Shown piece by piece: positions 8,790 to 55,355 of a stretch of DNA of 64,000 nt. The DNA is from Octopus vulgaris (taxonomy: Eukaryota): positions 67,704,001-67,768,000 of the forward strand of contig OX597832.1 in assembly GCA_951406725.2 (NCBI GenBank). The letters are read 5' to 3'. The notes under the pieces were generated by a model, which was not told the origin of the DNA, ran no database searches, and was given only the letters and a program-made list of their open reading frames with translations. Each line of letters starts with the position of its first letter. Position 1 is the first letter of the stretch. The position numbers were made by a program, and so were the translations under genes.

Positions 8790-9347
8790 ATGGTTGAATA
8801 CACACACACATTCTCACAAACACGTATATATATATATGTATTTACTATAAATGCATTTACTAATACTAACATTAATTTAGCTAATACCATCCAACCCTCT
8901 AGAAATATTAATAACAAGGTTATTGTATCTGAAGTCAATTCCAATAGAATTAAATTTATGTCAAGTAACTCTAAGATTAAAAATTCTATATACCAGTGTA
9001 TAATCAGTACTCGTAATAAAGTACGATTTTACATTGGAAGCACATCGTTAGAGTTATCTAAAAGAATTTCTATCCATTACTCAACATTTAGGGATAGAAA
9101 TAAACGGAATAGTACCGGTCTCAGCAAACTGATTTGGGATTTAAAAGACCACAATGAGCAATTTCATTTAGAATGGTTGATCCTCTCAATTTCGATACCA
9201 TATGACAAAGGCAAGAAATACTGTCTTCTCTGCAATTCTGAGCTATTTTTCATTATTTTTTCTAAAAATACTCTAGTAAACACGGTTATAGAGCGAGCAT
9301 ACAGATGTAAGCATTGGCAAAAACATACATTTAGTGCATATAAGTAG
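8790..9347 (+). pseudogene. GIY-YIG endonuclease domain of a 5'-truncated Penelope-like element
   Basis: SIY...FYIGST..LSKRISIH, STGLSKLIWDLK and C-terminal CLLCNSELFFI, typical of a PLE endonuclease. The N-terminus of the ORF is microsatellite-derived. Confidence 0.85.
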
Positions 9348-15299: not shown

Positions 15300-16858
15300 C
15301 CATGCACACCGTTCAAGAAATGCATGTCTACGCATCTTTAGCCACGACATTTCCAATCATCCACTGAGCAGCGGCTGACAGTAGATGGAGCGTTTGACGA
15401 GTGAAACACTACCTTACACAGAAAAGAATTATGCAAGCGCTCGAGTTTGATCAGGCACGAAGCAGAGCAAGGGACGACGGTAGTAGATGAGGGAATCGAT
15501 GTACGGATTCATCACATCCGCCCGATCTTTAAGGATCAGCTACCTCACTGCTCATTTCTGGGTGAGACTGGCCAACCAGCTCGTCGTCTCTTCTCAGTTC
15601 TTGTCCAGTTGGAGGTTCGGAACAAACCGGATCCCGAGCAATTTGACGATCCTTCCATCTAGGGCCTTAAAATAGAGTCACACCACATGGACCAGCCTCA
15701 CCAGGTTCAAACCTGCAAGTCCACCGATTTCTCCTGGTTAATTGTTACTATTTTCACCGCTTGTCGTCCGTTAAATTAGTGCCGATCACAAGGATTACGA
15801 AGGTATCAGACACTGTTTCGGTGACAATGTCCACATAAGGCGAAGCGAACCTCCTACATGCTAGATCACCTGGGATACCTCTCAAAACACCCAGCTTCTG
15901 TAAAAATGGATTGAGATCCAGAAGGTGCCGAAGGGGCAAGAGTCAGCATCCTTGACGAACTGAACTTGCGACGATAAACGATTCTAATCCGTGACCATAT
16001 ACGTTCTCCATCAAACAAATGTCGCTCTACATAGCAGCGATACAGCCTCTAAAAACGGGAGTGAAATTGGCCCTCGCGAGGACAGCCACCAAGTATTCGT
16101 GGTTTACCCCATCGAAAGGTTTTGATTTGTCTTAACAGATCAGAACCCCGCCCATGCCACGTCCCTTTCCTAACCTCTCAATGATGTAGCGCATGAAATA
16201 TCTGCTTGTGATAGCACGAGACCCCGGGCCACGGACATGTATACAGCATTTATACAACCCATTCTTTTACCCACCATGATGACCGGAAAGATGTTAGAGA
16301 AGAAACACTGGGTGTTTACTTACCAACCAGGTCCGCTGGGGCCTGGTGGTTCAACAACCATAACTGGTTGGGGCTCATTTCAGAACAATGGTGGTGGTGG
16401 TGGTGGTGGTGGTAGAGTAGGTAACAACCGTAATCGTCCTCTTACTGTTGCTGCTGTGAATTCATGTCTCATTTATTTTGGAAATTTAGGGCTTCATAAA
16501 TGGAATTCATTCCATTTGAGTGTAGAAGCTGGAGGTTTCCAACTTGGTTTGCTTCCACTTTGAAAACTACCTCTCACTTTGTCTTCCATACCTGCTTGCT
16601 GGGTGATCGAGGGCATAATTTTTTATAAGACAATTATAAACATAATATAAAAGCACACACCCCCCCCTCAAGAATAAGAAATTAAATTTTTTTTTTCATT
16701 TCATAGAAATTGAACCCCCGGAGGGGCGTAAACTAACGAACAACACGTATTCAACGGTGGTAATTTTAAAAGGCGTTTTGTTACAATATAAAGAATCAAA
16801 AACTTTTGAAGACAAAAATTGAAGCAATATACTACCGAAAGAAAATGCATCCTGGTGC
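15300..16858 (-). mobile_element. Internally deleted, decayed Tx1-like LINE
   Basis: Minus-strand translations DKSKPFDGVNHEYLVAVL, ASPYVDIV and MSWLKMRRHAF are homologous to ORF2 at 22.5-23.4 kb. 16700-16858 resembles the 5'UTR (cgcccctccgggggttcaatttc) and abuts an (AAT)n tract; this 5' extension is less certain. Confidence 0.7.
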
Positions 16859-18270: not shown

Positions 18271-18973
18271 AAAACATTACGTTATATAATTAGGGCTCAG
18301 TGAAAAAATTTATTTTACCACACACCGAACTTTTTGAAATAGCGGCCATAAAATTTTAGCTATTTCCTCTACTATAAGAAAAGTGTCCCAGACAATGTAT
18401 ACTCAAAAATAATTCACCCAGATATAGAGGGAAAAATAACAAAAGATCACACGTACATCGATTACTTGAGAACGCTGTTTCTGGATTAGTTGGATATAGA
18501 GATCAACATTTCCGTCATCAGCCCAAGATATCTTTAGATTTGAATTAGAGAGCATTAAAAATCAAACATACCCGTCTGATATGAGTAATCGCAGACAAAC
18601 CAACTTCGGCCGCTAGTACTAACGAATTCAAAAAGTACGAATGAGGCTTTACATCCTCTCACGTCCACCCACATGAGTTATAGAGCAACAAGTCCCTACA
18701 GAGGGATCTGTAGTTTATTATCAGGGACAGAGAATTATATTGTCAATAATAAAAGGGTAAAATTAATTAATTATTAATTAATAATTTTACCAAGTAGTGT
18801 TCAGTATGTAAAACAACCATTTACGGTATATTTAAAACATTACGTTACATAATTAAGGTACAGTAAAATAATTTACTTTACCACACACCGAACTTTTAGA
18901 AATAGCAATGTTGATCTCTATATCCAACTAATCCAGAAACGGCGTTCTCAAGTAATCGATGTACGTGTGATCT
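18271..18973 (-). mobile_element. ORF-less PLE pseudo-LTR-like unit (~563-bp monomer, 73-bp redundancy, 67-bp inverted 5' piece)
   Basis: 18271-18343 ~ 18834-18906 (direct); 18907-18973 is the reverse complement of 18444-18510; contains a hammerhead. Confidence 0.75.
18465..18527 (-). ncRNA. Type I hammerhead ribozyme
   Basis: Minus strand: CUUGGG CUGAUGA CGGA..GUUG...CAAC..UCCA GAAA CAGCG UU CUCAAG; first stem II pair is mismatched. Confidence 0.7.
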
Positions 18974-19060
18974 TAGTGGTTAGCCATATTGAGATGGCTA
19001 GTATACTTTACGTTGTCGAGTGGTTACTGTTTACATCTTGTTCAGAGATTTATTATTGCT
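18972..19060 (+). repeat. 5' copy of 89-bp terminal direct repeat of the Tx1-like LINE
   Basis: Matches 24629-24717 with 4 mismatches by eye; contains hairpin TAGCCAT-attgag-ATGGCTA. Confidence 0.93.
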
Positions 19061-19373
19061 TGCAGACAGTTTTTCGAAATCAGTGACGGAAGTTACTAGA
19101 AAAACTCATAAGTATTTGCAATCAGGTCTTCCTTTCATCGAAAACCGGTGTTTTGACTCGTCTAGGGACCTCTCTTTCATCTGCGTATTGAGAAGTTAGC
19201 TGCCTATTTTGTCGTTTTTTGTCCGTCGTTGTTTGTGTTTGCTCGTGAAATGAACAGTTGTCCGTTGTGTGACAGTAATTTTCGCCCTACGGGGCTGAAA
19301 ATTCTGTGTATAAACATTGTTATTACCTTCGGGGTAATTTTTTTTTTTTAAATTGGTTCTCATAATTTGAGAA

Positions 19374-20798
19374 ATGGAGTTCGACTTGGCGTCGAGGAGC
19401 GACTTTCCCGTGATGGGAAAAGGCGTACAGAAGGATATCGAGGTTAGAAAACAGTCTTTTACGGCCGCAGTGGGCGGAACCGTAACGGAAGTGGAATTCA
19501 AAATAGAACAGTTGTTCGAATACCGGAACTTGGTCAAAAAGGAAGGCAACGAAATAAAACTGGTACCGCCGCAAGCTATATTACAGGAAATAAAGGCCAA
19601 GACAGTCGTGTACAAGGTTTACAGTAACAAAGAGAAAAAAATAATGGACGTGAAGAACGAAATAGTAGAGAAGTGCTTGTCCCCGGTGTGGAGAAAAATT
19701 CGCTACGTCGGTCGAGGTACCCGCAGCGCTACCGTTGAAGCACATTTCGACTCGGCTGATGTGGCAAGAGAGATTTCATCGATGACCTTAAAAAGTGAGG
19801 ACATCATGTTACTACCTACCTATATGGGCAAAAGAACTGCGAAACTATATGTAGAAGACATTCCAAGAGGATATGATATAATGTGGGTAGCAGCGGCGGT
19901 TCTGCACGACGTAGAGCAGAAAGTCTCAATTCTGCAGATGAAAAGGAAAGAGGAGGTAAACTGGAAGGGACAAGCGCTCGAACTCCTCGTTCAAGCAGAA
20001 AATAATGTGCTAGAAAACTTACCCGATATGGTATTTATTGAGGAGGGAATTACAATGAGAGTGTCAGTGGAGGGGCGCAGACCTAGGTGTTTTAAATGTG
20101 GTGAAAAGGGTCACGTCCGCTCGAACTGCATAAAAAAAAAGAAAAACAGCGAAGCCCCTCCTCAAAGTGCTTCAAACACAGAAAAAGAAAAGGCGGAAAA
20201 AGACCCCAAGACTGCGACAAGGAAGGGAATCGAAACGGAAGATAAAAATAAACAAATGGAATTTACACAGGTGACACACAAAAGAAAAAAAGAAAATAGC
20301 CTGGACTCCCCTCCCCAAACAAAGAAAAAATCAGCAAACACCGCAGAGATACATACAAAACAAATTCCCCAGCCCTACCCCCACGGCACTGTATTCATTT
20401 GCCAAGCCCCTCCCCATAAAACAAGATTGGAAAAAATTGATTTAAAAAATGAAAAGATTGTAGCTTTCGACGAGAGAAACGATAGAGTGTTCAAGTATTT
20501 TAAATTTTCAAAACTGAAATTATTCAGTAAGTCTGCAGACACGAAGTCGACCACTCGTTTTGCAAAAATAAAGGAGGACGAGTGGAAGGAAAAAACACTC
20601 CAAGAACATTTTAAAAATAACCTTGTCAGAGACGTAACTAACGAAATACTGGAGGGCAAACTTACTATAACCCCGGCAACCACACCTACCCAGAGTCCGA
20701 TGGCAACGCCGGTTAAGAGCCCTGCAGCTACGACCACAAGGGAGGAAGAAGGGGAAGCATGCAGATTTAAACTGTCATGCTCCCTGTCCCAACCGTAA
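19374..20798 (+). CDS. LINE ORF1 (gag-like nucleic-acid-binding protein, 474 aa)
   Basis: Uninterrupted 474-aa ORF with zinc knuckle CFKCGEKGHVRSNC (CX2CX4HX4C), ending 22 bp before ORF2. Confidence 0.88.
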   Translation: MEFDLASRSDFPVMGKGVQKDIEVRKQSFTAAVGGTVTEVEFKIEQLFEYRNLVKKEGNEIKLVPPQAILQEIKAKTVVYKVYSNKEKKIMDVKNEIVEKCLSPVWRKIRYVGRGTRSATVEAHFDSADVAREISSMTLKSEDIMLLPTYMGKRTAKLYVEDIPRGYDIMWVAAAVLHDVEQKVSILQMKRKEEVNWKGQALELLVQAENNVLENLPDMVFIEEGITMRVSVEGRRPRCFKCGEKGHVRSNCIKKKKNSEAPPQSASNTEKEKAEKDPKTATRKGIETEDKNKQMEFTQVTHKRKKENSLDSPPQTKKKSANTAEIHTKQIPQPYPHGTVFICQAPPHKTRLEKIDLKNEKIVAFDERNDRVFKYFKFSKLKLFSKSADTKSTTRFAKIKEDEWKEKTLQEHFKNNLVRDVTNEILEGKLTITPATTPTQSPMATPVKSPAATTTREEEGEACRFKLSCSLSQP

Positions 20799-20820
20799 GT
20801 TTTTTTCTCTCTCTCCGACA

Positions 20821-23800
20821 ATGGCAAAGCTGGGTTGTGTGAATGTGCGTGGAATGGGGTCGAAATGGAAACAAATTTGTCTCCTGAACGACCTCACGGC
20901 ACACGGAGTGAACGTAGCTATTGTAATCGAGTCCAAGATGAACGGGGCCCAAGCGTTCTCGCCTCTTCTAAATGGTTTCGAGAAATTTATTTCTCCTAGC
21001 CGAGGAGGAGGAAGGGGCGTGGCAGTCCTTATCAGGAAGAGTTTGGACTTGCAGGTAAGTACTGTCTTTCTGGACCCAGAAGGCAGGCTGGTCGTTCTGG
21101 ATGTGACCCACGTAAGTAAACAGTTCTTCAGGTTGGTAGCTGTCTACGCTCCGAATGAGTGTAGGCAGTCGGGTTTTTTTCGGAATCTGGAGCACTTTTT
21201 AGTGACGTCGAAAACGGTAGTCTTAGTAGGGGACTTTAACACTGTCCTCGAAGCGCGGGTCGACAGTGTTGGCTCAACTAATAGGAAAGGGAACCCTAGC
21301 CTCAATTGTCTACTAGAGAGCTTTAATCTAGTAGACCGTTATCGACTGGATGAGCCGAGCGTTCCACAGTGAACGTGGAGTAACAACGACGGCTCACGCA
21401 GATCGTATATAGATAGGATATTCGTTAGGAAAAGAGATAAGGATACGTTTAGTTGTCCACAGTTTCACATTGTGCCTTACACGGATCACAAATTTGTGAC
21501 TTGTAGGGTGCAATTAGATAAGTGTTATAGACAGGGACCCGGGTACTGGAAGCTGAACAAGTCTATTTTGAATTGTGAAGACTTCCGTACCCGGATTAAG
21601 GTGTTAGGACAGAGGGCATTATGTGGCACCATCATTAACAATAGATGGTGGCACTCCCTCAAAAGAGCCATTCGTTCAGAGTCCATTAGATTTAGCAATC
21701 AGCTAAGGTTAGATAGGTCTAGGATAGAGGACGATTTAATTAAGAATCTAAACGAGGCAATGGAATCTGGCTCTGCATCCGGAGTGATGGCGGCAAGGAC
21801 GGTATTGTACCGTCACCTTAACTCCAAACACGAAGGTTGCAGAGTTAGAGCTAAGCTACGCGCAGGGAAACGAGAAGGTATTAACGTTGCCGGATGGGCC
21901 CGTCGAGTGGAGAGTCAGAGAGGCAACAAAGCTTCAATCAAGTCTTTAACTGACGAACAGGGACACAAGATCTATGGACAGGAGGAGATGCAAAAGGTTC
22001 TTCACCAGCATTTCGCCCGCGCGTTTGGGGTGGTGGTTCTCTGGAGCGGGGGAGAGCCTTAAAGGACTTCCTAGCCGGCGGACCGCGGCTCTCGGGGCGT
22101 GAGGTGGAGTGCCGTGAAAGAGCGATCACTCCCGCGGAGATAGAGGGGGTACTGGCCGGATACGCCGGGGAGAAGTCGCCGGGGTTGGATGGTCTGCCCT
22201 ACGAGTTTTATCAAAATATGCCGGACTTGTTCGGGGGAATACTGGCGGGCGTCTACGCGAACTGGCAGCAGAACGGGAGAATTTCCAGTTCTGTAAGCCG
22301 GGGAGTGGTGACGCTAATCCAGAAAGACCCGAGCAAGGGGGATAACATTAGTAATTACAGGCCCATAACTCCACTTAATGTAGAGTTAAAGATTTTGGCC
22401 AAGGTGTTGGCAAAAAGGTTGACGACTGTCGTGGAGAAACTTGTAGGGAAAGCACAGACATGTGCAATTCCAGGCAGGTCGATCCAGGACAATCTTCACC
22501 TTATACGCTACACCTTAGATAGGGTGGGTAAATTAACCGGCAAGGGCGGGGTAATGGTCCATTTAGACCAAAGTAAATCGTTCGATGGGGTAGACCATAA
22601 GTACCTGGCGACGGTCCTCGAAGCGGCTGGACTGGGCCCTGAATTTCGCGGGTTGATCTCCGCTATGTATAGCGGCATCACGTCCACCGTCCAGATAAAC
22701 GATTACCTAACGGAACCGTTTTCGATCGAATGTTCAGTTCGTCAAGGGTGCCCCTTGTTACCACTTTTGTACGTGTTTGCTCTCGAGCCATTGCTGCGAA
22801 AGTTGGAGAGGCTGGGAAGTAACCCGGATGAGATCGGAGGCGGGAGGACGGTTTCTGCTTATGCGGATGACGTCACCCTCATCGTGTCCAATGATGCTCA
22901 GCTACCTTGTGTAGAAGATGCTATCAGAGGATACGAGGCGGTGGCAGGATCAAAAGTTAACAAGGACAAGTCGATTGGCTTACGCCTCGGCACCTGGAGG
23001 AGCAAGTCGATATCGTCCAGTGCCGTGGGATACTGGACAGATGGTCCTGTTAAGTTGCTAGGAGTTTGGTTTGGGCCAGACTCCCAAACGGAGAGGAATT
23101 GGAGTGAGGTGACGTGCAAGGTGGAGGCCATAGTACGGACCTAGTCCAGAAGGTTTCTGTCCTTCAAAGGAAGGGCGGAGGTGGCACAGATGTTTATTGC
23201 ATCTGTAATCACTTACCGCCTGACCGTTTTCCTTGCCCCGATTCATGGCTTAGCAAGTTGGAGCGAATCCTTTTCCGCTTTTTGTGGAAGGGAGGAAAGC
23301 CACTTGTGAGGCGCTCCGTTTGCTGCCAGGAACCGTTAAAGGGTGGGTTAGGAATGCCTTGGTTGATGATGCGCAGACATGCGTTGAGGCTGAAGCATAT
23401 CTGGCACCGACTGGAGGGTGATAAGGTGTGGAGTCCGCTGGCAGGGGAATTTTTCCCGAGACCGGCTTCCTTAGTGAATTTTAAACCCGGTCGCATCAAA
23501 AGACGGAATCTGACATTATGGCAAAAGGAGTGCCGACAGGCACTCACGCTGATCCACAAGGCGGACAAGGCCGGCTGCGGAAATAGCACCTCGGTATTTT
23601 ATAGCAGGCTGGTAGAGGCAAAGAACGACGACGTCCTAGGAGGAGCTCTGGGGTTCGACGAGGACCAGCTTACCAATCTGTTTAAAAAGATTTTCAGGAC
23701 AGGGTATTTGGATAATTTCCAAATATCCCTGGCCTGGCAGTGTTATAGGAATGCTTTACCTGTTCGCGAGAAGTTATCGCGGTACGGAATTTCAGTGCCA

Positions 23801-24188
23801 CCGACATGTCCAAGATGCGGGTTGGACGATGAAACCGTCCAGCACGCTTTTGTACACTGTCGGCAGTTGTCAGACTTGATAAGTTACGCAGAACACGTGT
23901 TATCACATCTGGGACGAGTACAGCTGTCGGCTGAGTCTATGATTAAGATGATACAGCGAACTGGACTCTCGAAGGAAGGTGAGGCAAGTAGTACAAGAAT
24001 GCATGTGGCGAACAAGAATGGAAGGAGTCGCAATATGATACTTTGTCTCAGGCCCCGGCTTGCTCACTTACTTCAGATATCATCTGAAGGACAAAATGGG
24101 GCTGGAAAAGAAGACCTTACCACGAGGTGTGTATGAAAAAAGATGGAAGGGAGTGGCGAAAAAGGTAGGTGTCAGAAACCCAGTTTAA
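20821..24188 (+). pseudogene. LINE ORF2 (APE endonuclease + reverse transcriptase + C-terminal Zn finger), disrupted
   Basis: APE motifs NVRG, VYAP, GDFN, IDRIF, TDHK. RT motifs KSPGLDG, NYRPI, LDQSKSFD, VRQGCPL, YADD. Zn finger CPRC..ETVQHAFVHC. In-frame stops at 21370-72 and 23142-44, frameshifts near 22030, 23230 and 23990. Confidence 0.92.
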
Positions 24189-24440
24189 CTAAGGATGGAG
24201 AAGAGGAAAGGAAAGTTGCGGGGCCTTATAGGTTGCTGGGGTTTAAAATATATCGGTAAGATTTCAATCTAATGTAATGTTATATTAGTCAATGCAAATG
24301 ACAATTTAAATACAGTTTTTTGTATAATGAATAATCCATATATTGTGGAAATTTTTAAACGAACCACTTAACTGTTTTTTGTATGTACGTCCTGTATTGT
24401 TCTTCTATGTACTGATTTTATAATCGTAATAAAGAATTAA

Positions 24441-24521
24441 TCGTAAACCGGTGATTACCGTACGTTGACAAGAGGCAGATACCTCGAAACTGCAGTCCGT
24501 GCGTATCGCTTAGATTTACGA
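24441..24521 (+). ncRNA. Type I hammerhead ribozyme, U3-A8 core variant
   Basis: Stem I CGUACG/CGUGCG, extended by GGUGAU/AUCGCU and UCGUAAA/UUUACGA. Core UUGACAA (24465-71), stem II GAGG-cagaua-CCUC, GAAA, palindromic stem III ACUGCAGU, predicted cleavage after C24497. Confidence 0.8.
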
Positions 24522-24628
24522 GGGAGGGATGACCTCCCTTTGCAAATACCATAAGTGCACAGAAAGTGTGCCTAAAGCCAGCTGGAGACGATGATCTCCT
24601 GAGGCTAAAAGCTATAGTAACACCCACC

Positions 24629-24717
24629 CTTAGTGGTTAGCCATATTGAGATGGCTAGTATACATTACGTTGTCGAGCGGTTACTGTTTACATTTCGTTC
24701 AGAGATTTATTATTGCT
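24629..24717 (+). repeat. 3' copy of 89-bp terminal direct repeat of the Tx1-like LINE
   Basis: Matches 18972-19060; followed directly by a short (AT)n. Confidence 0.93.
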
Positions 24718-24719
24718 AT

Positions 24720-26009
24720 ATATATATCACAGAATGAACACAATCCTCCAAACACACACGATCATAAAAAGCAAAAGACAGCCTAGATCCATGAAAAGTC
24801 TCCTTACACAAGCCCGAATTCACTCTTCAACACAGAAGCCGACAGTAAAAAAATGTGGAAGACCCAATTGCGGGATATGCGACTATCTAATTGAGGGATC
24901 AGAGTTCTCCTTCAAACAGGGACAACGGTTTACAGTGAAAAGCAACTTCACATGTGCTTCGGAGAACCTAATATACTCACTAACCTGCTCCGGGTGTCAA
25001 GAGCAGTACATAGGCCAAACAAAAAATGGTTTGCGTAAACGAATGGCCCTGCACAGATCCCAGATAAAAATTCCCCAAAACAGAAAAATAGCTTTTAGCC
25101 AACACATAGATACTTGCGCCAACAAAAAAACACCAAACTTCAGAATTTTCCCCCTCTACAAATTTAGGGACGATACAACCTCGAGACAACGAATAAGTAA
25201 AGAAAATCTCTTTATTACAAAATACAAGCCACTTCTTAACGGGTCTACGACAAACAATTAATATACCTCAACTTTAGAATAAAAGAAAAATATATATACA
25301 CACACAAATATTACACTCCATAGAATCCATTACTAATCAGCCCCTTCATAGCTATACTTACACCCATTCATATTCTCCCTTCTCTGTTTTTTTCTTCTTC
25401 TTCTTCTTCCTCTTCTTCTTCATCATCATCATTATCATCATTATCGTCGTCATCATCATCACCACCATCATCACCACCATCTTCTCCTTCTCCTCCTTCT
25501 TCTTCTTCTTCTTCTTCTCCTTCTTCTTCTTCTTCTTCTTCTTCTTCTTCTTCTTCTTCTTCTACTTCTCCACCCCCTACCCCTTAACTTTGTCACTAAT
25601 GTTTTTTAGTATAACACCTACGCTAATTCTATAAACAAGCCTGTCAATATAAATATTCTCCTGAATTGAACTGAGACTGCCAGCCGCCACTGACCATTCA
25701 AAATACGACCATCAGGGCACTCCCAGATTCCCCCCCTTTCCTCACCAGCCTTCTTCCTCTACTACCCTACCAAGAACTCACAACGACCCCCAACACACAA
25801 GTGCAAACAAGGGAGTCAGAGAAAGGCAGAATGCCACTTAAATCTGAACACTACTATAGAAATATTCTTTTAAAAAAACTTTTCTTCTAATTTTTCTAAA
25901 TTTAATTATTTAATCGTTACAGTTGAAAAGGTCTCAAAATGACCGAAACCGGTACTGAAATGTTTACTATAAAATTATTTTAGCATTTTCTATTTTTTTT
26001 ACTTGTTTT

Positions 26010-50535: not shown

Positions 50536-52985
50536 ACCAATATCATTATTGATGTTATCATTAATATCACCGCCATTACTACTATTGTTACTGTTACTTC
50601 TGCTATTTGTCAGGTCATTAGAGATTGTGGTGGTATCTGGGAATTGTTGGTAGAATAGGTTGGGTTGCGGTTATTACCAGGTGTGATAGTATCTATGGTA
50701 GATATGTACGTGTTGATTATTTGTATTAGTATAGTTGTTGCTATGTGAATTTTGATAGTAAAGAGAGCTTTTACTTATTCGAGGCTGCTACAATAGATTC
50801 AAAGTTAGTTGAGTTTGAATAAGGTAGTTTCAGGGTGGATCTATTAAAGATAGAGTGTTATTTATGTTGTCGAGGGAAGTTAGAGTCAAGAATTCTAAAA
50901 AAAGATTTTGCTAGGTTCTTAACGTTAAGTGAGAATGGTGGTGTATACCATAAAATAGAGCAACAGCCACTTTTTTTAGGGGGTCTGGGGATGGAGCTAT
51001 CTAAATTGTTAGATAAATGAGTGTTAGTTAACATATTGTGTAGGTGTGTGATAATCAAGGCCTGTTATTGTTAGTTGTTTTATTTGTTTTAGTATTTGAC
51101 CTATTGTTAAATGAATGTGTGTGGGGTCTATATTGTCTGGATACAATGGCTTCCATGGTCCGATCAGCTGTGTATGTGTTTTGTTGCGGATGTCGTAGTT
51201 GTTGCGTGTTTGAGATGTGATTTGAGATATGTATTGTTTGAGCCTAGTGTTCTGGATATATTCTATTTGTTGGGAGAAGCCGCTAGCAACGAGTGCTTGG
51301 TTATAATATGGTGCGTGATTATTGAAGATTTCTTCAGTGGAAGAGAGGTTAGATATGCGGGTTGAGATTCCGTTGATTATATTATTAAAAGTGGATTTAT
51401 GGTGATTGGAATGGATGTTAAAGTATTTAAGGTACTGGTTAGGTTTGTGGTAAGGGTAGTATTGGGATGTTGACAAGTTTAGGGTTGCGTCCAGAAAGTT
51501 AGCAGTTTTGTAGGCGTTTTCGAATGTGATAGATAGGTTTAGGTTAGAAAAGTATTTATGTAGGTCCTCTCTGGTTCCTTCTAATGAGGATTTATCTATA
51601 CTTTTAGTAATTAATAAAGCGTCGTCCCTCTATAGGCCTCCCTTGATATTAGGGAAGTGCCTATGGAGCTGGTGTAGTATGTAAAGCCCTGAGCTGAATC
51701 TGATGATCCCATCGTTATATCGAATAGGTTGCTACGGTTGATACTATGGTTACTGGCCCGGCACCATAGTTTGCTATCAAAAGAAATAAGGGTATTTCGG
51801 GCGTTAAATATAATATAAATTTCAAGTAGGGTTAGGTTAGTAAAGTTCCTAGCAAGGAGAAGAGCTTGGTTAAATAATTTAGGAGAAATGGAAGAGTAAT
51901 AGTTGTGAATATCAAATTGTAAGAATGAATATGCGTTTTTGTTATTTATAAGATAAAACCATGCAATCACTTCACCAGTGTGGGACCAGAGATTAACGTC
52001 TAATTTTTCTTTGACGATAGGTACTACTCTGTCCAAAATACTTTTGCTTACACCTCCTAGGTCAGATTTTGTGGGACATATTAAACGTATGGAATGTTTT
52101 CTGATAAAGTCCTTCTTGTGATCTTTAGGATTAATGCGTGGTGATGCAGAGCAATATGGTTCCGTTCGGTCGTCGAGTAGCAATTTTCTCATAAGTTTGC
52201 AGTGGTTGTTATTAATGTCATTCAGGGCTGATGTTGGTGCCAGCTTGTACTTAAAAGCTACTACAACACTTAGTATTTCCTTACCTCTTAACACCCTCAT
52301 TCCTCTATCATTTATACTATGATACCTTTCTCTCTCTATCCCCACTCCTACTTTCAAACTACCTTCACTGACCACTGACCAACCTATATCTTAATTTTTC
52401 ATTTTTCTTTACCTTATTCTCTTTATTCATACCTTCAGGGATTTTTCTTTATTTTTGTTTTTACTTATCTGCTCTTTTTCTCTTTAATTCTTTCCTCACC
52501 TCTGTTTATCTCTTTTTTTTGTCATTCCTCTCTTACTATTTTCAATGTGACCAAACTAATACACTCCCTATTTCTAGATCAGTTTAAACACAAACCTCGA
52601 ATCTGCTACACTCTATACAAATTCCCTACTGGGAAGGACCAACTTTAAGAGAATCTTACATTGTTTATAAAATTTACATTTGGATGGACTCATATTAAAC
52701 TCTGTTGGACTTTTGGATTTTACTCAAAGGATATTGGAATAATACACCTATATAACATTATGCCTATAAAACGGATTTATGAACTCAATAACCATACATA
52801 TCTTATACCTATTTTTTTTCCTCCACCTCACTCTCTATTTATATCACATCGAAACTATAACTTTTCCTCTCACAACGTCCCCGATGAAGGGATATTATTA
52901 TTAATTAATATTCTAGAAAGAGCTGTAATACCTTCTATCTATAAATGCTCTAATATCTATACAGCCTTGTTTTTTTATCTCATTA
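48843..52985 (-). mobile_element. 5'-truncated Penelope-like retroelement with ~735-bp inverted pseudo-LTRs
   Basis: 48843-49582 is the near-identical reverse complement of 52251-52985; RT and GIY-YIG remnants lie between them. Confidence 0.92.
49929..52250 (-). pseudogene. PLE reverse transcriptase + GIY-YIG, multiply disrupted
   Basis: IRLICP, FLQFDIHNYYSSI, FDITMGS.D.A, GL*RDDAL (YRDD hit by a stop), NFLDATL, HSNH, WYTPPFS, AIYIGST, CKLCLKEALQI. Confidence 0.9.
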
Positions 52986-53833: not shown

Positions 53834-54581
53834 TCATAGGTACAGTTACATTACAACCAAGAGAGATGTCGACTCATAGCCATACCAAATTTTATAATAA
53901 TGTCCAAAACTCGGCACATGAAAAACGTTAGTTCTGGAATCGAATAAACTAGATTGTGACTTTTCGTATTTTCTCTAAGTGATATTTTGTCGCGTTCTTT
54001 GATCCGAGAATTTCGTGTACATAATAATATCTGGCTTTCAATTTCGTGTACATAAAGTGCTGGAAGGTACGTCACACATTCTCCACGATACTGGACCCGA
54101 AATATATACTTATGTTACATAACGGCATTGTTAAGCATGAATGCTGCTCTCGAGTTTTACCAGAATTCGTATGAATGTGTAAGATTAACCTCACCAAATC
54201 CTCAGATACATTTACCTGGTGAATATAAGAGAACAGTTTAACAAGTAGTATTTTTATCTGCAATAGGTGGGGTAATTATAGACACTGGAACGATTTTCGA
54301 TCGAAACACCTGGAAAAGCAGAGCAGTAGAGTTGGCTATTACAAGCAAACGTACGCTAAAGCTGATAGTTCTAAATTTCTATTGGTGCAGTCACAGAGGA
54401 CGACTGAGTGATTGGCACCAGAATCCACCATGCAGAAGGTTATGTATGAAACTAGTGGACCAGCACCTATTTGAACCACACTTTGATCTTGAGAATATAA
54501 GGCGAAAGTAGAGCGTACAAGTGGCTGAGGAAAGTACAAATAGAGGTAAGTAGACCCCTCCCGTTCATCGAAATCTTTTTT

Positions 54582-55355
54582 GTCATCATAATGGGATTAG
54601 GAGTGGATTGTATATATGTTCGTGGTCTGGATTCTTCCTGGGGCCAGATTAACTCGCTCATCGAACTCAGTTCACTAGCTATGGATGTGACAGACGTCAA
54701 CGAAATAAAGTTTTCAAACTTATTCGATCTAGCCTCTGTTTTCGAAGACTGTTATATTTACGAATCTCTTAGTCGGCCTGGAATGGGAGGCCTAGTGATG
54801 GTGTTGTTTAAGAAAGATCTGAATCTCGAGGTACGAACGATCTCCCTGGAACCCGATGGTAAATTGGTAGTCCTGTATGAGAGCATAGCGAAAGTGGTTC
54901 TTTGGACAAGTCGCTGCCCACGCTACAGCTGGAGTGGGGTAGCCAGATACCTTCAGGGGTTTTCCTTGGAAGCATCGCTTTTTTGTGACAGTGGACGTTT
55001 GGAAAATGAGGGTGGGGAGGGATGTGCTGTTCCCATTAATTTTGTTGAAATGTGAGTGAATGTGGAGAGGATTTTCTGTGTGAATGGGTCTACTGTGAAC
55101 ATACCCTTGTAAGCCGGAGTAGTTGACAAGGAGGGAAGTGCCCTAAGTGGCTTGCGTGATGAATATGTCTATGATGTCTTGCGTGTCCCTTTGTCTAATT
55201 CCCAGTTAGGGGGAATTTTATTGTTAAATATTTGATGTTAATTTTATTTTAATTTATACATGAATTTTTGTACATAACCACACTTTCCCCCTTGTATTGC
55301 CGCTTGTATTGTGTGCAGCCCTTGTGGCCAATGAAGAAAAATTATTATTATTATT
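54582..55355 (+). mobile_element. Internally deleted Tx1-like LINE relic (APE N-terminus fused to 3' end)
   Basis: CIYVRGL...EPDGKLVVL is homologous to the ORF2 start at 20821; ends cccttgtggccaatgaagaaaa followed by (TTA)n. Confidence 0.7.

Follow-up and report, generated by a model that had tools for sequence, protein, structure and literature searches.

A full-length L1/Tx1-type LINE of Octopus vulgaris nested at a fixed site in a separate hammerhead retrozyme

The window analysed here is a 64,000-nucleotide (nt) stretch of the Octopus vulgaris genome (GenBank assembly GCA_951406725.2, contig OX597832.1, positions 67,704,001 to 67,768,000, forward strand). It contains two nested elements, a long interspersed nuclear element (LINE) at 19151-24439 and a hammerhead retrozyme, whose two halves (18972-19150 and 24440-24717) enclose it. 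An earlier sequence-only reading had taken all of 18972..24717 as one LINE; the LINE ends are instead bounded by a 14-bp target-site duplication which that reading missed. The features are listed below, with open reading frame (ORF), apurinic/apyrimidinic endonuclease (APE) and reverse transcriptase (RT) abbreviated.

18972..19150, + strand: retrozyme, 5' half, covering monomer 191-355 and the target duplication; its identity to the 355-nt tandem monomer is 94%, and in LINE-free copies it is continuous with the hammerhead
18972..19060, + strand: first copy of an 89-bp repeat, in which the retrozyme of 1.25 monomers overlaps itself
19137..19150, + strand: 5' target-site duplication, 14 bp, one mismatch against the 3' copy
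19151..24439, + strand: full-length L1/Tx1-type LINE (5.3 kb) of family F1, which has about 60 copies
19374..20798, + strand: ORF1, 474 aa, open, with a CCHC knuckle
20821..24231, + strand: ORF2 (APE endonuclease, RT, zf-RVT), with stops and frameshifts here, end approximate
24428..24433, + strand: AATAAA, 6 nt before the LINE end
24440..24453, + strand: 3' target-site duplication, 14 bp
24440..24717, + strand: 3' half of the retrozyme (monomer 1-279), with the fixed retrozyme 3' end before (TA)n
24459..24503, + strand: type I hammerhead with U3-A8 core and short palindromic helix III, predicted cut 24497/24498
24629..24717, + strand: second copy of the 89-bp repeat

The LINE copy in the window is dead, with its ORF2 broken. 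At its borders we found a 20-bp imperfect repeat (85%), which was narrowed to the 14-bp duplication. As had been proposed, AATAAA near 24428 is followed by neither an A nor an (ATT)n tail. The direct repeat at 18972-19060 and 24629-24717 is real (96% identity), but it is not part of the LINE's own ends: the retrozyme copy in the window has 443 nt, or 1.25 units of 355 nt, and therefore overlaps itself by 89 bp. The same terminal overlap is present in retrozyme copies without any LINE.

The hammerhead module, which had been taken for the LINE's own end design, belongs to an element that mostly occurs without the LINE. A genome search with 24440-24628 gave 2349 first-look candidates, of which 40 were scored and 30 fetched; first-look counts of the retrozyme lie between 2349 and 2595 genome-wide. 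None of 29 other module loci, which represent a tandem array and 21 separate places, had LINE sequence before the module, which is thus LINE-free in 22/22 other places, and also in 29/29 further copies. In these copies the module runs upstream into sequence matching window 18972-19153, giving the 355-nt unit. Twenty-one solo copies covered 0.72-1.30 units with variable 5' ends, and their 3' ends were fixed, at position 233 in 10 and at 279-280 in 7. Free copies run out into (TA)n or AT-rich DNA, often with an inverted 5' piece; inverted pieces and microsatellite ends are hallmarks of Penelope elements. No long ORF was shared across the 44 loci scanned. A unit of 150-450 bp, tandem and solo copies, a type I hammerhead in each unit and a noncoding sequence were all found, so that by its sequence the 355-nt unit fits the animal non-LTR (long terminal repeat) retrozymes, as described in passages of PMC7229834 and bioRxiv 10.64898/2026.07.22.740005. 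A tandem array of about ten 355-nt units was seen at G000:C4:13620800-13624190 (L009, L025-L030). There is also a distant relative, retrozyme B, of about 360 nt (4827 first-look candidates; L034, L057, L151-L165), related by an alignment score of 165 against 94 +/- 12 for shuffled sequences.

The F1 census used a 28-nt motif of the LINE 3' end with at most one mismatch, and it covers the copies that carry this motif. There were 60 genome-wide hits and none for the reversed control, and all 60 were inspected. Every 3' end (60/60) lies at the site, 57 directly before a hammerhead unit and 3 before the duplication and another LINE; in two of the 60 the LINE sits in retrozyme B, at the matching position. 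The module does follow ORF2 in nearly all copies of the family, as had been proposed. The insertion site is 25 nt before the hammerhead core, in one position and orientation. A regex-intact core was present in 49 F1 targets, 26-35 nt downstream and exactly 28 nt in 38/49, while in 8/57 targets the core was damaged or partly deleted. Among 29 other F1 3' ends, 26 were followed by this retrozyme, two by retrozyme B and one by a sister LINE, and among 29 other 5' ends, 27 came after the retrozyme and two were stacked on another LINE. LINEs with truncated 5' ends also lie between two retrozyme halves (L035, L041, L261). Contigs from sequencing runs of four organisms cover both LINE and retrozyme, with no listed piece bridging the junction by 31 nt on each side; in run X13, three loose contig ends pass from the target into the hammerhead, matching an empty site.

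The insertions carry local marks. Of 21 full-length loci, 20 had paired duplications, 11 of them exact, and L094 lacked the 3' copy. The duplications are 14 bp, longer in some subfamilies, and their sequence varies with the locus: mismatches averaged 0.5 within against 2.4 between loci (permutation p 5e-5). In the same 21 loci the flank distance was 0.19-0.23 and the LINE distance 0.034-0.038, a difference of about five times. The two flanks correlate with each other (rho 0.55, p 0.0005), and neither correlates with the LINE. A tree was built from 54 of the 60 3' ends, leaving aside 6 rows that were short or divergent, and its bootstrap is not settled. In it the main F1 lineage is star-like across target subfamilies, with the exception of an 11-copy subclade (support 93/82, not starred) that occurs only in target subfamily D. 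Upstream flanks were also compared with 31 intact references for donor origin, with 8/40 loci not parsed. Overlapping flank parts are 95% alike within loci and 87% between loci, so the upstream flanks are mostly local.

The window hammerhead was recognised as had been proposed, with helix I at 24459-24464/24498-24503, the core UUGACAA at 24465-24471 (the U3-A8 variant), helix II at 24472-24485, then GAAA, a 2-bp helix III with a palindromic loop, and GUC ending at 24497. The predicted cut at 24497/24498 is 58 nt past the LINE end. Rfam recognised neither a hammerhead, whether in the window or in the 3' module, nor any ribozyme in the 5' region; the motif was established by pattern and covariation. 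Among 58 distinct copies, 94% of cells pair, against 87% after shuffling (0/500 shuffles reach the observed value, though related sequences can exceed shuffles without structure) and 24-46% in slid controls. Core positions 3 and 8 pair in 58/58 copies (UA 27, CG 19, UG 12), which were chosen with a hammerhead pattern that itself favours this pairing, and helix III remains palindromic. Both the U3-A8 core variant and the short palindromic helix III are shared with hammerheads of Penelope-like elements, for which the variant has been described; there, a hammerhead whose helix III is this short depends on a second copy, and one minimal motif by itself gave no cleavage in vitro (passages of PMC4209133). 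Most loci here contain one hammerhead copy, and a lone minimal hammerhead at the LINE may be inactive.

The LINE carries in ORF2 the Pfam domains Exo_endo_phos (N-terminal APE endonuclease), RVT_1 and zf-RVT (C-terminal), and the best solved-structure relative of ORF2 is human L1 ORF2p (E 3.5e-40). The closest named protein relative is from Argonauta (57%). A CCHC knuckle was detected in ORF1 (PF00098, E 3e-4), and such a knuckle in ORF1 is typical of the Tx1 clade. Protein searches for Tx1 relatives returned no named Tx1 reference. As to target preference, passages of PMC4494074 take more than 20% of flanks in one repeat as the mark of target-specific Tx1 LINEs, and here it is 60/60. On these domains and this preference, rather than on a placement in an RT tree, we file the LINE only as L1/Tx1-type.

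Other elements use the same site. A sister LINE family, F2, is 81-83% like F1; read by eye, 16/20 of its 3' ends lie before the retrozyme and 2 are stacked, and 15/20 of its 5' ends come after the retrozyme and 5 after the 3' end of another element. The two F2 insertions off the target are L126 and L112, and L126 lies at a partial target word within an apparent Penelope RT gene. A junction pattern gave 34 hits (control 0), of which 30 were fetched, with older LINE variants among them. Five of these 30 loci contain a companion element of 1.6-1.7 kb with ORF1 only and its own duplication. Copies of this companion were noted at L115 1695-3178, L197, L196, L205 and L206. At L197 it measures 1675 bp between two identical 14-bp duplications and has no ORF2. 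Its protein is 30% identical to ORF1 over 233 aa; it forms several subfamilies about 72% alike, and it is often stacked with F2. HAL1 (half-L1) elements are ORF1-only L1 derivatives akin to this companion: both have only an ORF1-like gene, but the companion is site-specific for the same retrozyme position. Two divergent LINEs, L250 and L251 (76-84% like F1), lie 29 nt before hammerheads of different sequence. Elsewhere in the window, the relic at 54582-55355 ends in (TTA)n, as had been noted, and at 54555-54875 its endonuclease is 36% identical to that of the LINE; in its family the retrozyme was at the 3' end in 0/20 loci, most of which end in (ATT)n-like repeats. The association with the module is lineage-specific, as had been suggested.

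Two nested elements, a fixed site, locus-specific duplications and a site shared with a sister LINE and an ORF1-only element are thus seen directly. The explanation we consider very probable is that the LINE settles at one fixed site in a separate, high-copy hammerhead retrozyme by sequence-specific APE cutting and target-primed reverse transcription. By the precedent of Tx1 and R2 elements, the APE endonuclease would make staggered nicks at the retrozyme target, and reverse transcription would prime at the cut target. With AATAAA placed just 6 nt ahead of the LINE end, we infer that the LINE RNA extends past it into the retrozyme, and it would run into retrozyme sequence at both ends. Instead of relying on a poly(A) tail, the RNA could then pair with the cut target through its target-derived end. 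Penelope-like elements would have spread the retrozyme. It is likely that the retrozyme serves as a plentiful and harmless landing site, and it may supply the LINE promoter. The hammerhead is left intact downstream of the LINE and yet probably is not needed for insertion; its processing of read-through LINE RNA is possible.

Several observations weigh against this explanation. The F1 census is limited to copies with the 28-nt end motif, 2/20 F2 ends are off target, and L094 (1/21 loci) and L259 have flanks from different subfamilies. In the one Penelope-like family examined, no element has this retrozyme as its terminal repeat. The target sequence varies, with several subfamilies, retrozyme B and the two quite different hammerheads at L250 and L251, and so an endonuclease recognising a short sequence does not fully explain the targeting. 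Nor does the explanation account for an upstream bias: at least 110 nt of upstream retrozyme was present at 38/39 full-length LINE loci (L244, stacked on F2, left out) and at 19/50 LINE-free copies (Fisher p 1e-9). In subfamily-matched sets the upstream medians were 196 (n 13, LINE loci) and 76 (n 29, LINE-free; p 1e-5); none of the 29 controls follows a LINE, and two unfetched candidate rows are known LINE-adjacent places. Full-length LINE copies need or prefer at least 100 nt of retrozyme upstream, which could reflect an upstream recognition element, an active promoter or homology-dependent 5' joining. At six loci (the window, L076/L038, L110, L244, L257, L259) the 5' duplication is shifted towards another common target type, which hints weakly at an RNA leader.

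Another explanation is the same nesting with a LINE that depends on retrozyme RNA: it would be transcribed from the retrozyme and cut by the hammerhead 58 nt past the LINE end, the RNA ends would guide pairing, and what the lineage tracks would be the ribozyme domain as well as a short DNA word. Such dependence is an addition to site-specific cutting and does not exclude it, and we regard it as possible rather than probable. The insertion lies at the base of a long predicted helix I in 5/7 folded targets, divergent ones included, and L250 and L251 keep their 29 nt to the core despite different target sequences. The upstream bias, the confinement of the 11-copy subclade to subfamily D and the duplications that differ towards another target type point in the same direction, and the upstream retrozyme is long enough for a second hammerhead at about 6/27 F1 and 8/15 F2 5' junctions. 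Set against these, a single short-helix-III motif stayed uncleaved in vitro, the LINE has its own AATAAA, the core is damaged in some targets (damage that may post-date insertion), most duplication mismatches are compatible with ordinary decay, and the upstream flanks are mostly local. A wider picture, in which the LINE lineage is a parasite of hammerhead elements that finds the base of the ribozyme domain, borrows promoter and ribozyme, is guided by RNA ends and supports a guild of LINEs and ORF1-only elements, is speculative and we think it rather doubtful.

It is highly improbable that the LINE includes the module and the terminal repeat and is copied together with them, as the sequence-only reading had it. 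The 57/60 copies with the module after ORF2 would suit that model, and the discordant flanks of L094 and L259 could be carried 5' sequence; however, it is contradicted because the duplications are locus-specific and lie inside the module at the LINE ends, with no outer duplication bounding a joint journey. The module is also mostly LINE-free, the flanks of the LINE diverge five times as much as the LINE itself and are uncorrelated with it, truncated LINEs occur between two retrozyme halves, and the outer ends are like those of free retrozymes, fixed at 3' and variable at 5'. Very unlikely, too, is a LINE that is also the enzyme source spreading the retrozyme. The two co-occur, and passages of PMC7229834 list LINEs or Penelope-like elements as possible mobilisers of retrozymes. 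Free retrozymes, however, show the (TA)n or AT-rich borders, variable 5' ends and frequent inverted 5' pieces described above, they are not inserted at the LINE's target site, and passages of bioRxiv 10.64898/2026.07.22.740005 tie animal retrozymes to Penelope-like elements. The sequence-only reading had said that a module found mainly alone would refute it and mean a chance nested insertion or one-off 3' transduction; the module does occur alone, which refutes that reading, but chance nesting or a single transduction is hardly credible. Nothing beyond the high copy number of the retrozyme favours it, and 60/60 insertions share one position and orientation, for which the chance per insertion is about 2e-5 even with 100,000 targets (2.8 Gb, two strands).

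By analogy, site-specific insertion into the retrozyme would parallel the use of other mobile elements as insertion sites by target-specific Tx1 families. Precedents in passages of PMC4494074 are Tx1L in Tx1D (piggyBac), Tx1-Mar in Mariner-N4_AMi, Tx1-9_AMi in Harbinger and Keno in U2. The likeness, drawn here without a clade tree, includes a two-ORF APE LINE at one site in another repeat, a duplication of about 14-20 bp, stacked insertions spaced by one duplication and a non-autonomous partner with the same target. Unlike those LINEs, the target here is a hammerhead retrozyme and the host an invertebrate; the Tx1 targets named in these passages are DNA transposons, LTR elements, U2, U5, 5S, microsatellites and satellites, with retrozymes not among them. 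R2 encodes its own ribozyme, resembling that of hepatitis delta virus, at its 5' end and uses a restriction-like endonuclease. Here, in contrast, it is the target that contains the ribozyme, on the 3' side of the LINE. Nevertheless R2 in 28S rDNA is also a site-specific LINE in a multicopy unit with a ribozyme adjoining the junction, and it inserts better when its RNA has target-derived ends, which sets a precedent for pairing between read-through RNA and the target (passages of PMC6795142). The searched passages of the retrozyme and Penelope hammerhead literature contain no cephalopod case and no targeting LINE, cleavage in the present case being predicted only. Searches of the open literature turned up no report of a LINE with a retrozyme or Penelope hammerhead as its target, although Repbase, subscription journals and supplements (PMC4494074, PMC13282606) may hold one; a term search of the main text of the 2026 octopus repeat annotation (PMC13282606) found ribozymes, retrozymes and targets unmentioned.

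The finding adds ribozyme-bearing retrozymes to the target range of site-specific LINEs. It also describes parasitism in three layers, in which a LINE and an ORF1-only element live in a retrozyme that in turn probably relies on Penelope-like elements. With 60 natural insertions spread over many variants of the target, one subfamily whose target is shifted and an upstream-length requirement, it is a testable case for the question of how much of LINE targeting is due to the endonuclease and how much to RNA-DNA pairing. The near-absolute specificity of an APE-type LINE is of interest for targeted insertion tools, and repeat consensus models in such genomes may merge LINE and retrozyme.

A separate element, not part of the finding, follows the retrozyme in the window:

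24728..25994, + strand: Penelope-like element, young, 5'-truncated, with a GIY-YIG ORF at 24734-25261

It has 2085 first-look candidates, the best copies being 99-100% identical, and its own hammerhead-like motif at 25918-25959 with U3-A8 core and palindromic helix III. This adjacent GIY-YIG family was considered as parent of the retrozyme and rejected, with the retrozyme in register at 0/29 other loci. A second GIY-YIG fragment (8790-9347) and a Penelope-like RT fragment (51611-52300) are also in the window.

As to the LINE itself, its first bases (19151-19163) resemble subfamily D retrozyme just past the duplication when compared with the L246 3' flank, and look as if the 5' end had once captured target sequence. 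A GTAAG-type word and then a pyrimidine run stand directly before ORF2 both in the LINE (20793-20820) and in the relic (54550-54590). Another L1/Tx1-type RT relic, 38-45% to ORF2, was found at 15300-16227 (- strand). A third hammerhead-like motif, with a CUGAUGA core and long helix II, lies at 18443-18526 (- strand), and the element carrying it has an inverted duplicate (18907-18971) that abuts the retrozyme 5' end.

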